From a virus, in IMG/VR virus record IMGVR_UViG_3300041405_000299, positions 1 through 64,000 of that record: 64,000 bases of DNA. The stretch is one strand, 5' to 3'. How positions within the stretch are numbered: the stretch's first letter is position 1; every line of letters begins with the position of its first letter. A program made the position numbers and the translations under genes. Below are positions 4,140-19,303 of the stretch, piece after piece. Below the pieces are notes generated by a model, which ran no database searches, was not told the DNA's origin, and worked only from the letters and a program-made list of their open reading frames with translations.

Positions 4140-4216
4140 CGGTATTTAGCTCAGCTTGGTAGAGCGCTTGGTTTGGGACCAAGGGGTCGTAGGTTCGAAT
4201 CCTACAGTACCGACCA
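4140..4216 (+). tRNA. tRNA-Pro (UGG)
   Basis: Manual cloverleaf. Anticodon loop TTTGGGA, T arm GTAGG-TTCGAAT-CCTAC, encoded CCA. Confidence 0.85.
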
Positions 4217-4220
4217 ATTT

Positions 4221-4308
4221 GGAAGAGTGGCTGAGTGGTTTAAGGCAGCGGTCTTGAAAACCGTCGGCCCCTAGGGGTCCCAGAGTTCGAATCTCTGCTC
4301 TTCCGCCA
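4221..4308 (+). tRNA. tRNA-Ser (UGA), type II
   Basis: Anticodon loop CTTGAAA, long variable arm, T arm CAGAG-TTCGAAT-CTCTG, encoded CCA. Confidence 0.85.
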
Positions 4309-4309
4309 A

Positions 4310-4383
4310 GGGGATGTAGTTTAATGGTAGAACGCCTGCCTTGCACGCAGGTAACGAGGGTTCGACTCCCTCCTTCTCCACCA
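4310..4383 (+). tRNA. tRNA-Ala (UGC)
   Basis: Anticodon loop CTTGCAC. A G3:U70 wobble (the Ala identity element) is present. One acceptor mismatch. Confidence 0.75.
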
Positions 4384-4422
4384 ACTTCGATAGAGTCCTG
4401 GCTCTTTAAAACCGGGTACCGC

Positions 4423-4498
4423 GGGGCTATGGTATTAGCGGTAAACATACTGGCCTGTCACGCCGGAGTCGCGGGTTCGAATCCCGCTAGCCTCGCCA
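4423..4498 (+). tRNA. tRNA-Asp (GUC)
   Basis: Anticodon arm CTGGC-CTGTCAC-GCCGG, T arm GCGGG-TTCGAAT-CCCGC, encoded CCA. Confidence 0.85.
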
Positions 4499-4501
4499 AT
4501 T

Positions 4502-4575
4502 GGAACTGTAGTTAAGTGGTATAATGGCCGATAGTGCTCGGTTGTCCCCGTGTTCGATTCCGGGTGGTTCCGCCA
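4502..4575 (+). ncRNA. Degenerate tRNA-like element (non-7-nt anticodon loop)
   Basis: Good acceptor stem (GGAACTG/TGGTTCC) with G-CCA. The anticodon arm folds only with a 6-nt (TAGTGC) or 8-nt (ATAGTGCT) loop. The T arm has a mismatch and a 9-nt loop. Confidence 0.5.
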
Positions 4576-4789
4576 AATTAGGGACGCAGACTTTACGACT
4601 TCGGAAGTTTAGTCTGAATCCCGCCATACAATGGGTTGGTAGTTTGTAGGGACCCTGATCAGGTCTTACCAAAAACGCCCGGGGTCCAACCCGGGAGACG
4701 CAGGTAGAATACTGCACGGCCCGCCAAACAAAGTCCCGCACCTATCCAGTCCGCACGAGGTCAGGAGGGTTCGCAAAGCGGGCATTAAT
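4576..4789 (+). ncRNA. ORF-free GC-rich structured spacer inside tRNA island A
   Basis: No credible ORF. Hairpins include CCCGGG-gtccaa-CCCGGG, the palindrome CCTGATCAGG, and GCCCGC...GCGGGC long-range pairing. Confidence 0.4.
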
Positions 4790-4877
4790 TGGGACGTAGC
4801 TTTGAAAGCAGCCGGTGCGTATCCGGTGAGTTAACACCCTGCGGGGTGACTTGAAGGTGGAAATCCTTCCGTCCTAC
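4790..4877 (+). ncRNA. Type-II-like tRNA-like element with non-canonical loops
   Basis: 7-bp acceptor TGGGACG/CGTCCTA. Anticodon-like arm GCCGG-TGCGTAT-CCGGT (G at position 33). Variable hairpin CACCC-tgcg-GGGTG. T-like arm GAAGG-TGGAAAT-CCTTC. No CCA. Confidence 0.45.
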
Positions 4878-4883
4878 CTTTTT

Positions 4884-4969
4884 GGAAGAGTGGCAGAGCG
4901 GTAATGCAGCACCCTGCTAAGGTGTAGGCCCCTCGGGGTCCGTGGGTTCGATTCCCACCTCTTCCTCCA
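4884..4969 (+). tRNA. tRNA-Ser (GCU), type II
   Basis: Anticodon arm GCACC-CTGCTAA-GGTGT, long variable arm, encoded CCA. Confidence 0.85.
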
Positions 4970-5013
4970 CTCGGATTTTCGTGTTATGCTCCGGCTTTAA
5001 CTAGGAGATCAAC

Positions 5014-5439
5014 ATGCAAATCATCGCCGCTTTCCCTGGCACCGGTAAATCCTACCTGTCCAACAAACACCCTCATATTTCTGATTCTGACTCAAGCCGT
5101 TTCGATAAGCGTTACTTCCCGGGCAATTACCTGGACCACATTCAAGCACTTTATGACCGCGGTCTGTGCTCGTTCGTGTCAAGCCACGCGTTAGTCCGTG
5201 AAGGCTTGGTCAAGCGGGGCCTGCCGTTCTTGCTGGCGTACCCTGATCATTCCTGCAAAGCGGAATACCTGGAGCGTTACCGTCTTCGCGGCAGCCCTGA
5301 GTCATTCATCCAGCTGATCGACGCTAACTGGGACGCATGGCTTGACGAGTGTGTAGCTCAGAAAGATTGTGAACACCTGGTTCTCACCGAGGGCGTCTAT
5401 CTCAGTGATGCTATCCAGTGGGGCTTCTCTCTGAAATAA
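5014..5439 (+). CDS. P-loop NTPase/kinase-like protein
   Basis: SD AGGAG. N-terminal Walker A-like motif AAFPGTGKSY. Confidence 0.65.
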   Translation: MQIIAAFPGTGKSYLSNKHPHISDSDSSRFDKRYFPGNYLDHIQALYDRGLCSFVSSHALVREGLVKRGLPFLLAYPDHSCKAEYLERYRLRGSPESFIQLIDANWDAWLDECVAQKDCEHLVLTEGVYLSDAIQWGFSLK

Positions 5440-5456
5440 CGAAACGGGGTTCTTCT

Positions 5457-5476
5457 GGTATAAGTAAAGTATCATA
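5457..5476 (+). promoter_or_regulatory. Conserved phage promoter-like motif (GGTATAAGTAAAGTATCATA)
   Basis: Motif family member, TGGTATAAG form. Confidence 0.55.
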
Positions 5477-17625: not shown

Positions 17626-17809
17626 TATTTTAGGTAAGGAAATCGATCTGGGCGACAAAGTGGCTTTTTCAGAAAGCAGCTACGCCGTGCTGCAACATGG
17701 CGTCGTGTCCGGTATGACAGACAAGCGAATTCGCATCCAGTATCCTCGTGGCGGTACTACCCTTAAGGCGCCTACGCAGGTAGCGATCGTGGAGAAGTTC
17801 AATGCTTGA
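17618..17809 (+). CDS. Small beta-barrel-like paralog 3 (63 aa)
   Basis: Translation is MRDILGKEIDLGDKVAF... Overlapping stop-start. Confidence 0.75.
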   Translation: MRDILGKEIDLGDKVAFSESSYAVLQHGVVSGMTDKRIRIQYPRGGTTLKAPTQVAIVEKFNA

Positions 17810-17993
17810 TTACTTCGGGAACACTCTTTGCATCGGTGATCGGATAGCTTTCGTGAGTAATAAAGGGTACTTGACCTCTGGTCAGGTTACTGGCTTCCAC
17901 GGTGAAGAGCCTAACCGTTACGCTGAAATCTGGACAGACGGTAAACGCAATACGAGCAAACAAACCCGTGAAATCGTTAAGGATGTGCTATGA
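17802..17993 (+). CDS. Small beta-barrel-like paralog 4 (63 aa)
   Basis: Translation is MLDYFGNTLCIGDRIAF... Overlapping stop-start. Confidence 0.75.
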   Translation: MLDYFGNTLCIGDRIAFVSNKGYLTSGQVTGFHGEEPNRYAEIWTDGKRNTSKQTREIVKDVL

Positions 17994-18205
17994 GTTTTGA
18001 TATGATGGGCAGTTTTCTCGAAGTGGGCGACGTGGTCGTTTGTGGCGGCGGCACCTCTCAGGCTTCTCAATTGAGAATCGGTCGGATTGTATCCAAAGGT
18101 CCGAAGATGGCCGTGCTTGAACCGATTGAGGGTCATCCCAAGTCTATCGGGAACTATCGGGCCGGCAAGCGTTACTACCACGACCTGCTTAAGATCCACA
18201 TTTAA
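17990..18205 (+). CDS. Small beta-barrel-like paralog 5 (71 aa)
   Basis: Translation is MSFDMMGSFLEVGDVVV... ATGA coupling. Confidence 0.7.
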   Translation: MSFDMMGSFLEVGDVVVCGGGTSQASQLRIGRIVSKGPKMAVLEPIEGHPKSIGNYRAGKRYYHDLLKIHI

Positions 18206-18217
18206 GCTTTTGCATGG

Positions 18218-18237
18218 GGTATAAGTAAGGTGTAACC
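18218..18237 (+). promoter_or_regulatory. Conserved phage promoter-like motif (GGTATAAGTAAGGTGTAACC)
   Basis: Motif family member. Confidence 0.55.
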
Positions 18238-18259
18238 AATTACACAGGACTTTTGCCCC

Positions 18260-19024
18260 ATGACTCCTATCTACGCAACCCTTCACGATACCGATCGTTT
18301 CATCAATTCTGTTAATCCCCAATACATCTGTCATCACGTGGATTCCATTGGAATGGTTCTTCGGCCGCACTCGTTGAACAACAGTGTGTGGATTCCATGG
18401 AATGAAGTGATGGGTCCCAGACTACACACTCCAATTCAGTTATTCCATTGCGACCGTGTCATTCAGATGCCGGATGTTTGGACTGAATTGACCCTTGACC
18501 GAGGGGTTCGCACCTACTCGGTCAAAATCGAAAGGACAGCCGAAGAGAACATCAAAGTGTATTTCTACGATGATCTTTACTGCTTGGTTCAATCCGTGTT
18601 GATGTTCGAGTTCAGTCCCTACCTTGAGCTTATCGGTACGTTGCTGACTTTCGATAGTTCCATCGGGCCCTACGAAATGGCCTCGGTTCGGGATCGATTG
18701 TTCATGATGGCCAAGGCGTATCTTCCGGCGACACTCGGTTTCATTGCTGTGTTCAATAACCGTCAGCGTTTTCAAGTAACGCTCGGGGAGCCCCAGAAGA
18801 TTGAACCTCGCGGAACAACCTCGGACTTCCGTACGCAACACTTAGGCAACGTTCGAGAGGTTATGAACCGTCGTGATAATCCTTCTGGCATCTCTCGGTC
18901 TCCTCATCGCCGTTCGGCAACCACGAAAAAGCTTAAGGATGGGCGGATTGTTCCGGTCAGAGGTACAATCGTTCATCGCGATGCTTACGACGGCCTTGAC
19001 GGACCGAAGAATGTGAAGTTCTAG
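18260..19024 (+). CDS. Hypothetical protein (254 aa), TAG stop followed by an in-frame TGA one codon later
   Basis: ORF track. Ends TTC TAG GCT TGA. Confidence 0.8.
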   Translation: MTPIYATLHDTDRFINSVNPQYICHHVDSIGMVLRPHSLNNSVWIPWNEVMGPRLHTPIQLFHCDRVIQMPDVWTELTLDRGVRTYSVKIERTAEENIKVYFYDDLYCLVQSVLMFEFSPYLELIGTLLTFDSSIGPYEMASVRDRLFMMAKAYLPATLGFIAVFNNRQRFQVTLGEPQKIEPRGTTSDFRTQHLGNVREVMNRRDNPSGISRSPHRRSATTKKLKDGRIVPVRGTIVHRDAYDGLDGPKNVKF

Positions 19025-19026
19025 GC

Positions 19027-19055
19027 TTGACAGGGAGCAAGGTGTAGGATATTCT
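19027..19055 (+). promoter_or_regulatory. sigma70-like promoter for tRNA island E
   Basis: TTGACA-N17-TATTCT. Overlaps the terminator hairpin. Confidence 0.5.
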
Positions 19056-19068
19056 ACCCTTGCTTTTT
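19036..19068 (+). terminator. Intrinsic terminator
   Basis: AGCAAGG-t-GTAG..CTAC-CCTTGCT stem followed by T5. Confidence 0.6.
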
Positions 19069-19071
19069 AGT

Positions 19072-19148
19072 TGGGGAGTAGCTCAGTTGGTTAGAGCGTT
19101 CGACCGATAATCGAGAGGTCGCGAGTTCGAGTCTCGCCTCCCCAACCA
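19072..19148 (+). tRNA. tRNA-Ile (GAU) with C at position 33
   Basis: Anticodon arm TTCGA-CCGATAA-TCGAG, T arm GCGAG-TTCGAGT-CTCGC, encoded CCA. Confidence 0.75.
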
Positions 19149-19150
19149 AT

Positions 19151-19226
19151 GCACCATTCGTCTAGCGGTCTAGGACCCTGCCCTTTCACGGCAGTAACAC
19201 GAGTTCGAACCTCGTATGGTGTACCA
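19151..19226 (+). tRNA. tRNA-Glu (UUC)
   Basis: Anticodon arm CTGCC-CTTTCAC-GGCAG, encoded CCA. Confidence 0.85.
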
Positions 19227-19227
19227 C

Positions 19228-19303
19228 GCCGTGGTAGCTCAGTTGGCAGAGCGAGGGACTCTTAATCCCCAGGTCGATGGTTCGAGCCCATCCCGCGGCA
19301 CCA
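19228..19303 (+). tRNA. tRNA-Lys (CUU)
   Basis: Anticodon loop CTCTTAA, T arm GATGG-TTCGAGC-CCATC, encoded CCA. Confidence 0.75.

Follow-up and report, generated by a model that had tools for sequence, protein, structure and literature searches.

Gene sets that protect or repair translation have already been described in jumbo phages, in which tRNAs occurring together with PTH2, CCA-enzyme and RNA-repair genes were interpreted as counter-measures to attacks on translation (Iyer et al. 2021, PMC7824862 section 3.4.9). In phage XacN1, 63 'translation-related genes' were catalogued by authors who could not identify the targets of its CUA tRNAs (PMC5852040). The locus presented here lies in the first 64,000 nucleotides of the virus record IMGVR_UViG_3300041405_000299, the whole of that stretch being referred to as the window, and consists of a CUA suppressor tRNA, a hidden gene for a PTH2-like peptidyl-tRNA hydrolase and a gene for an HD-superfamily phosphohydrolase. 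It shares with the jumbo-phage sets the association of tRNAs with PTH2, CCA-adding-enzyme functions and RNA-repair enzymes, but neither PMC7824862 nor PMC5852040 describes an ArfA, an amber codon in PTH2 or a link between a suppressor tRNA and PTH2, and the phage of the window, with a genome of ~175 kb, is not a jumbo phage. The author of an earlier note on this stretch was not aware of a description of ArfA, PTH2 and a suppressor tRNA as a functional unit in a phage. The general notion of a phage translation-repair toolkit is already published, whereas ArfA and an amber-gated PTH2 in phages were found neither in these two papers nor in full-text literature searches. The PTH2-like gene carries an in-frame amber codon immediately behind its start codon, named the gate in what follows, and the suppressor tRNA, the gated gene and the HD gene probably form a translation-linked three-part unit embedded in a larger tRNA region, from which the ArfA gene located in the same region is separate.

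Single codons that subject a gene to one component of the translation machinery are known in bacteria. The in-frame UGA of prfB, the gene of release factor 2 (RF2), works through frameshifting and senses the release factor, and the bldA tRNA of Streptomyces decodes a TTA sense codon found in many genes. As in these two systems, one special early codon would make expression depend on a single translation factor or tRNA, but here the tRNA that decodes the stop and the one gene on which it acts would both come from the phage, often adjacent to each other. In phages with stop-codon recoding, a phage suppressor tRNA likewise reads in-frame TAG or TGA codons while the host code is standard, and many late or lytic genes are affected across whole genome blocks (10.1101/2021.08.26.457843; PMC10879173). 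Here, in contrast, a single gene has an in-frame TAG, which always stands at codons 2-5, and TAG is otherwise an ordinary rare stop. Recoding of TAG throughout the phage was considered and rejected: the sequence is 88% coding under translation table 11, the large genes are intact, and ~4 of ~100 genes end at a credible TAG stop. The read-through extensions of TAG-terminated genes measure 1-53 amino acids and have no evident meaning, and no other convincing gated gene was found in the window.

In the Arash-like myovirus to which the window belongs, tRNA and accessory genes make up this early region. Megablast of 4000-20000 gave a single sequenced relative, the distant Salmonella phage Arash (180.8 kb; coverage 12%, identity 82%), and the clade is completed by five syntenic IMG/VR contigs, one of them a 40.6-kb fragment and the others 176-183 kb long; contigs and loci are cited below by L numbers. 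The paper on Arash itself gives the tRNAs as a count only and does not discuss translation factors.

The PTH2-like gene is largely hidden from annotation. Open reading frame (ORF) finders see only its last 52 codons (14868-15026), and the equivalent 50-codon ORF of the Arash record, labelled 'peptidyl-tRNA hydrolase', matches only a PHROG of unknown function. A six-frame search of the region for PTH2, Pth1 and GGQ motifs gave nothing, and none of 99 ORFs compared with Pfam and NCBIfam matched PF01981 or another peptidyl-tRNA hydrolase family. The gene is instead connected to PTH2 by a chain of homologs, which starts from a genuine PF01981 PTH2 on the 188-kb metagenomic phage contig L018, where it overlaps the start of an HD gene and is preceded by an RNA ligase gene, and leads through ME3_195 and the upstream ORFs of CBB and L017 to the 52-residue ORF of the window. 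Between 14697 and 15026 the window has an uninterrupted frame for a full domain, which can be aligned with ME3_195 over 97 residues. Solved PTH2 structures (24bt, 1e-7; 2zv3, 4e-5; 1rlk, 7.5e-5; 1rzw, 4e-4) are matched by the family profile over positions 5-102 of its 105, and PF01981 is matched by five of nine family members. It is thus through the homology chain and the family profile, and not through its own Pfam score, that the window protein is placed in PTH2. The unannotated N-terminal 57 codons are under purifying selection, with, for example, 23 synonymous versus 2 nonsynonymous differences. The catalytic motifs of PTH2 enzymes are a Q..HA helix and a D-A-G-x-T segment; in the present family VQSNHAS is conserved, and EPDW.YG.TAF takes the place of the canonical second segment. 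The PTH2-like gene proposed earlier is therefore real by profile, although it is invisible to ORF calling and Pfam, being hidden behind an in-frame TAG.

The 52-residue ORF and the HD gene were also considered as the two halves of a frameshifted gene corresponding to phrog_14850 (270 positions), a reading that was rejected because the extra length represents fused PTH2-like-HD proteins such as that of pT24. Phage Atu_ph07 has a UCA suppressor and two PTH genes but is absent from the list of PTH2-like matches. In published records, the gated gene is absent from the annotation of RsoM2USA and truncated at an internal start in CBB_406, ME3_195 and XacN1 ORF364, the HD gene of the CBB record is split into fragments, and most GenBank records have no annotation under the PTH2-like match. 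The missing, truncated or mislabelled gene amounts to a systematic annotation blind spot.

The ATG-Leu-TAG structure of the gate is present in all six relatives, including L006, in which the Leu codon is TTA and the TAG is retained though the upstream sequence diverges. Among these six, start codons further downstream are not conserved, and L004 lacks an ATG altogether. A survey of 64 loci from IMG/VR, metagenomes and GenBank, grouped into 23 clusters at 80% identity, gave TAG as the gate codon in 22 clusters, 0-3 codons past the ATG and always followed by A, and TGA in the remaining one (L067). Since the search patterns contained no stop codon, the prevalence of TAG does not stem from the way in which the loci were collected. 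Suppression is favoured where a purine, above all A, follows UAG. The gated loci include unrelated giant phages, namely the GAP32/CBB group, ME3, pT24, XacN1, RsoM2USA and megaphages (Table 1), and this arrangement, conserved across so many of them, seems to be undescribed.

The in-frame amber codon ties the suppressor tRNA to the PTH2-like gene by a stronger link than the earlier note had proposed. The CUA suppressor reported there is real (Rfam 56 bits), and a CUA tRNA is present in 14 of 14 IMG/VR loci, the L030 copy being recognized by Rfam. In several metagenomic lineages it precedes the stop by 100-170 nucleotides (nt), and in the ME3, pT24, Arash and GAP32/CBB groups its distance from the gate is 0.5-3.9 kb; XacN1 (PMC5852040) and RsoM2USA have CUA tRNAs at other places in the genome. 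At L067, where the gate codon is TGA, no CUA tRNA occurs, and a canonical UCA tRNA (Rfam 72.8 bits) stands ~190 nt upstream of the ATG of the gene. This co-variation of stop codon and anticodon is the strongest evidence in favour of the tRNA decoding the gate codon. The ungated copies, those of RaK2 with a normal ATG start and of L018, have no suppressor tRNA within 6 kb. In an alignment of 21 suppressor sequences, compensatory changes maintain the cloverleaf, with 95.5% of cells paired and such changes at 19 of 21 pairs, and the 7-nt anticodon loop CUCUAAA is conserved. Within the clade the CUA tRNA is conserved in all relatives and identical in Arash, L003, L004 and L005, and across lineages the CUA tRNAs have a pairwise similarity of 61-78% against a background of 55-68%, which is suggestive of orthology but no proof of it.

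The third component, the HD gene, overlaps the PTH2-like gene by 20 nt. Its product has no Pfam match even at E<=1, but three distant members among its 173 homologs carry a PF01966 match. The family conserves H27, H75-D76 (in HDCGKP), H87, H91, D116 and H120, of which H27, H75-D76, H91, D116 and H120 compose an invariant metal-binding H...HD...D pattern. An alignment-based AlphaFold2 model (predicted local distance difference test score, pLDDT, 97) has HD proteins as its fold matches and displays the all-helical HD fold. The sole profile matches in the PDB are 3WFO-3WFS (E 0.0016), over the HDIGKP region, and the same structures come first in the fold search (probability 1.0, template modelling (TM) score 0.61-0.66 over the whole query), followed by generic HD phosphohydrolases. 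Their deposited names are 'Poly A polymerase' and 'tRNA processing enzyme', and their family is that of the CCA-adding enzymes, so that both profile and fold matches bear out the proposed resemblance of this HD/HDIG protein to the HD domain of CCA-adding enzymes. With that domain of class-II tRNA nucleotidyltransferases it shares the HDxGKP...F..H motif, but it is a stand-alone protein of ~15% identity devoid of a nucleotidyltransferase head; a PolyA_pol head (PF01743) was found neither in the HD protein nor elsewhere in the window. The HD domain of the E. coli CCA enzyme has 2',3'-cyclic phosphodiesterase and phosphatase activities. In phage ME3, the 220-residue ME3_203 (L011:3792-4454) is a PolyA_pol head (PF01743, 108 bits) without body or HD domains, located 2.5 kb from a stand-alone HD gene and a CUA tRNA, an arrangement that resembles a CCA-adding enzyme with its parts divided among separate genes.

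The HD and PTH2-like proteins are fused in other phages in either order, PTH2-like then HD in pT24 and HD then PTH2-like in XacN1, and fusion in both orders points to one shared substrate. This substrate would be the tRNA 3' end, from which the PTH2-like enzyme would remove peptidyl or N-blocked aminoacyl groups and the HD enzyme phosphate-type blocks. The CUA suppressor tRNA would be transcribed from its own sigma-70-type promoter, and full-length PTH2-like protein would be made only when this tRNA is expressed, matured and charged, with fMet-Leu being released otherwise. In the preferred reading, the gate would be a clean switch that turns hydrolase synthesis on or off according to whether the phage tRNA pool works or the suppressor is active. 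That the suppressor and the start-proximal stop constitute a dedicated two-component translational sensor, in which a codon readable only by a charged phage tRNA with an intact 3' end couples synthesis of the enzymes that deblock tRNA 3' ends to the state of the tRNA pool or the suppressor as a feedback or a checkpoint, and which would be the long-missing function of orphan CUA/UCA suppressors in standard-code giant phages, is put forward tentatively and may well prove wrong. A tie to particular defence systems (PrrC, CapRel and others), as the earlier note had imagined, may at most be conjectured.

It could be argued that the genes are merely co-located without coupling, as accessory genes acquired between the tRNA islands of a plastic early region and travelling jointly by shared ancestry. 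Indeed, the same 15 kb also encodes abundant virion proteins, an Acb2/Tad1 sponge, a DUF1353 protein, a Toprim protein and membrane proteins, the genes found between the islands differ from relative to relative, the ArfA gene of phage pf16 has neither tRNAs nor HD nearby, and HD-bearing phages outside the clade gave no ArfA match in a search of 50,697 phage records. With such genes interspersed, these 15 kb are not a dedicated translation module. The trio nevertheless recurs, fused or adjacent in varying arrangements, in lineages sharing little else, and its stop codon and tRNA anticodon co-vary, which makes co-location alone an unlikely account of it. What survives of the idea of a coordinated module is therefore the suppressor, the PTH2-like gene and the HD gene, co-conserved far beyond the clade, but not ArfA; the remaining genes of the 15 kb are neighbours, not demonstrated partners, of the trio. 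As an explanation of the gate itself, the TAG might end a leader mini-ORF of 1-4 codons, in which case ribosomes would re-initiate at a nearby non-canonical start to make the PTH2-like protein, and the CUA tRNA would serve another purpose. Start-stop leaders are known regulatory devices, and the codon after the TAG is ATT, ATC or ATA in many lineages, and GTG TTG follows the TGA at L067, where re-initiation is also conceivable; all of these are possible weak starts. However, the Arash and GAP32/CBB groups have AAC or AAT next and then no start, no alternative start is conserved, and full-length PTH2 homology starts within a few codons of the stop. Moreover, any stop would suffice for termination, yet TAG is used in all clusters but one and the TGA case lies beside a UCA tRNA, and a leader of this kind appears improbable.

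An offensive checkpoint would have the PTH2-like and HD enzymes attack or strip host tRNAs in the course of host shut-off, with the gate delaying their synthesis until the phage tRNA pool, as signalled by the suppressor, works. Some phages are reported to break down host tRNAs and to supply substitutes, the gate lets synthesis proceed only once phage tRNA is expressed, and the phage has a near-complete, CCA-encoded tRNA set. PTH2 enzymes, however, are known for recycling and not as toxins, no nuclease is linked to the trio, and L018 pairs its ungated PTH2 and HD genes with an RNA ligase, which points to repair; this possibility is given very little credence. The tRNA array might also serve mainly for codon-usage adaptation, the suppressor being a by-product of a near-complete set, since codon-usage matching was reported for the tRNA sets of XacN1 and RsoM2USA and the phage tRNAs cover 18 amino acids. 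Yet ME3 and pT24, with a handful of tRNAs near the cassette, keep a CUA tRNA beside the gated gene, and Arash, L003, L004 and L005 have one and the same CUA tRNA, though their proteins are just 50-90% identical to those of the window, and codon adaptation hardly seems a probable explanation of the suppressor.

Several observations weigh against the three-part unit with its suppressor-dependent gate. Chance alone yields ~3 occurrences per 64 kb of an ATG followed by a few codons, a TAG and a long open frame; a single genome thus proves nothing, and the case rests on conservation and co-variation. No suppressor tRNA was found within 5-6 kb at the gated loci L061, L069 and L072, whose flanks are full, and the suppressor of the window has U50-U64 and C31-A39 mismatches and G73, where the clade consensus has a paired A64 and A73. 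The PTH2-like frame of the window (14697-15026) alone has no Pfam match at E<=1, and with E-P-D-W replacing D-A-G-x-T its hydrolase activity is not assured. In the window phage the HD gene has its own Shine-Dalgarno (SD) sequence and need not be gated. ArfA, the ADP-ribosyltransferase (ART)-fold proteins and the HD_4 hydrolase encoded by the same phage have no linkage to the trio beyond shared clade ancestry.

Table 1. Positions of the gate, of the genes and RNAs discussed and of comparable gates in other phages (window coordinates unless a locus is named)
Feature	Position	Strand	Details
Gate	14674..14696	+	SD AAGAGGAAA 14674-14682; ATG 14688-14690, CTG, in-frame TAG 14694-14696, then A
PTH2-like peptidyl-tRNA hydrolase gene	14688..15026	+	Met-Leu-amber, then 109 codons
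HD-superfamily phosphohydrolase	15007..15537	+	176 aa (amino acids); own SD GGAGG 14997-15001
sigma-70-like promoter and CUA suppressor tRNA	16537-16565 and 16575-16649	+	CCA encoded
ArfA homolog	7927..8079	+	50 aa; SD AGGAG 7917-7921; own TAA stop
ART-fold protein	15564..16199	+	211 aa; invariant LLGYHxVxHGT[ST] motif
Paralog of ART-fold protein	10509..11186	+	Arash ortholog gp96, an abundant virion-associated protein (mass spectrometry table)
HD_4 hydrolase	32655..33494	+	279 aa; stop TAG; PF13328 51.5 bits, cutoff 27.2; phrog_990
tRNA island 1	4140..4969	+	Pro(UGG), Ser(UGA), Ala(UGC), Asp(GUC), Ser(GCU) and two non-canonical elements (ARAGORN, Rfam)
Non-canonical element	4502-4575	+	6-nt anticodon loop; CCA end present
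Aberrant tRNA-like element	4790-4878	+	no CCA; no Rfam match
tRNA island 2	6291..6533	+	Tyr, Phe, Gln; promoter-like site 6253-6281 directly upstream
tRNA-like element	6925-7000	+	Rfam 50 bits; anticodon arm aberrant; no CCA
tRNA islands 3 and 4	12262..14104	+	Asn, Leu, Thr, Gly, Met, Met, His, Cys, Trp; small ORFs interspersed
Promoter-like sites of islands 3 and 4	12047-12075 and 13993-14021	+	
tRNA-Lys(UUU)	16870..16946	+	ARAGORN, Rfam
tRNA island 6	19072..19303	+	Ile, Glu, Lys(CUU); promoter-like site 19027-19055
L067 cassette	L067:4728-5315		metagenome contig Ga0065714_10002187; closest relative L063 uses TAG
XacN1 ORF364, gated gene	L010:6985-7849		
RsoM2USA, gated gene	L013:9066-9434		
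CBB, gated gene	L009:6660-7001		
ME3, gated gene	L011:6675-7013		
ME3 gate			ATG ACT TAG
CBB gate			ATG GCA CAA TAG
L017 gate			ATG GGT CAC TAG
pT24 gate			ATG AAA TAG; read-through would give a 314-aa PTH2-like-HD fusion
XacN1, Xoo-sp13 and RAS14 gate			ATG AAG (AAG) TAG; heads a fused HD-then-PTH2-like gene
RsoM2USA gate			ATG TTG TAG; PTH2-like ORF unannotated
635-kb megaphage (LR745206) gate			ATG AAC AAT TAG
Gate of some metagenomic lineages			ATG TAG directly

Besides the trio, the region encodes an ArfA homolog, which had been proposed before and is upheld by a PF03889 match of 69.9 bits (cutoff 25.5, E 1.2e-19, ORF 7864-8079) and a conserved N-terminal core, with its coordinates corrected to 7927-8079. 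Indeed, the true start is the ATG at 7927, preceded by AGGAG and a terminator-like hairpin, and not that of the 71-residue ORF. A hydrophobic mini-ORF of 21 codons (7839-7904) has its 3' end inside this hairpin (7892-7910). The phage protein shares with E. coli ArfA the N-terminal ~40 residues, with 25 invariant positions including A18 and the basic KKGKGSY segment, but differs from it in that all seven clade copies, of 47-50 residues, end at a genuine TAA or TGA stop and lack the hydrophobic C-terminal tail. No conserved RNase III-type hairpin was found in these seven copies, near the stop of which there are only short, non-conserved hairpins. The phage genes thus do not have the form in which ArfA is made from non-stop mRNA under the control of transfer-messenger RNA (tmRNA), and since their translation would end at a normal stop once the mature length is reached, the repression by tmRNA known from E. 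coli ArfA would not apply to them. In view of the conserved core, RF2-dependent rescue of non-stop ribosomes is expected, in which the phage ArfA would bring in the RF2 of the host wherever a ribosome has stalled on a truncated mRNA. If so, it would be a tmRNA-independent ribosome-rescue factor, rare and so far undescribed in phages, and relevant to the ways in which phages withstand the cutting of mRNA, whether nucleases of their own or defences of the host are responsible.

Among 50,697 phage records, ArfA occurs only in Arash, where it is annotated as 'ribosomal protein L2', and in Pseudomonas phage pf16, in which it is unannotated (L008:12001-12132, 52% identity) on the strand opposite the annotated gene pf16_199. 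The pf16 gene is unlinked to tRNAs or HD, with no tRNA within 12 kb, and is a second, independent phage acquisition; the same search found no ArfA in other phages bearing HD or PTH2-like genes. Membership of ArfA in a general tRNA/PTH2/HD unit is rejected by this distribution, and ArfA is a rare, clade-specific addition, separate from the suppressor/PTH2-like/HD unit.

The tRNA region itself contains 25 tRNA or tRNA-like genes between 4140 and 19303, every one on the + strand according to ARAGORN; 22 of them pass the Rfam tRNA gathering score and 23 encode their own 3' CCA. They comprise 21 canonical tRNAs for 18 amino acids, rather than the 22 counted before besides the suppressor, together with the CUA tRNA and three non-canonical elements, in agreement with the several tRNA-like RNAs reported earlier. 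Six promoter-like sites on the + strand have a perfect TTGACA and a 17-nt spacer, and four of the six, the suppressor's among them, stand 10-17 nt before a tRNA 5' end, so that the description of the islands as separately promoted is reasonable. The tRNA-like element at 6925-7000 is located just upstream of an abundant virion-protein gene (7030-7824) and has counterparts at the same position in five relatives (L001:8429-8502, L002:9001-9077, L003:7442-7518, L005:9005-9077 and L006:9062-9135). Conservation in this family extends to the acceptor, D and T arms and the 3' flank (TAGCTTTAAAAT) but not to the anticodon arm, which differs in sequence and in length, and CCA is absent; such an element might act as a processing signal for RNase P/Z or as a decoy.

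The protein encoded directly downstream of the HD gene had tentatively been taken for a Tpt1/ART-like protein. Its family counts 25 members, all metagenomic and without named relatives, in which H34-G35-T36 and D130 are invariant and no clear catalytic Glu was identified. The fold matches listed for its model (pLDDT 85) are all ARTs, the TreX toxin coming first (probability 0.99), then PARPs and exotoxin A, with modest scores (E 0.03, TM 0.33-0.51). An ART fold is thus moderately supported by the modelled structure, whereas Tpt1 specifically is not: the only sequence matches in the PDB are indeed to Tpt1, over the HGT motif, but at E 0.3, there is no PF01885 match, and Tpt1 is missing from the listed fold matches. 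With ART toxins such as the TreX Rhs toxin (8S2M) the protein shares the fold and the H-G-T motif of the NAD site, and it differs from them by its weak fold match and the lack of a clear catalytic Glu. T4 Alt and ModB are phage ARTs, and Alt is virion-associated, a feature shared by the paralog at 10509-11186. The RelA/SpoT-type hydrolase predicted at 32655 is likewise supported by its match above cutoff to the PF13328 HD_4 profile, which we take to be the RelA/SpoT-type HD family; read-through of its TAG would add 47 residues. Among the homologies called in the earlier note, those to ArfA, HD, PTH2, ART and HD_4 proteins hold, and only Tpt1 is unsupported.

Further genes of the region belong to other functions. 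A 75-residue protein with an Acb2/Tad1 hairpin domain (11627-11854; PF24729, E 1e-14) is encoded between tRNA islands and conserved at 73-83% identity in six of six relatives; members of this family act as cyclic-nucleotide sponges against CBASS and Thoeris. Four genes amid the tRNA region (7030-7824, 8734-10509, 10509-11186 and 11183-11575) are orthologs of Arash gp100, gp97, gp96 and gp95, which have high spectral counts in Arash virion preparations. One virion-type protein, of 591 residues, is repetitive and rich in Ala, Gly and Lys, and the products of the four, one of which has an ART fold, may be internal or ejected proteins. Five small genes in a row (17005-18205; 63-80 residues), at least four of which are paralogous, have N-termini such as MRDxFGNxLxxGDxV and are partly conserved in relatives, nine of them being consecutive in Arash. 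A 141-residue P-loop protein (5014-5439; MQIIAAFPGTGKS..., phrog_4182) is encoded within the territory of the tRNA islands and shared only with L003 and L006. Finally, a 164-residue protein (2651-3145) has a weak likeness to macro domains (NCBIfam DarG antitoxin, E 3.7e-8; Pfam Macro, E 0.026) and, judged from these profiles, may be an ADP-ribosyl glycohydrolase, which is of note in a phage with two ART-fold proteins.

Annotations of large phages that use the standard code routinely list suppressor tRNAs for which no target is known. A single, deeply conserved amber-gated gene would provide a concrete cognate target for them. By tying a pair of putative tRNA-recycling enzymes to a dedicated tRNA, the gate suggests that these phages monitor or buffer their own translation apparatus.

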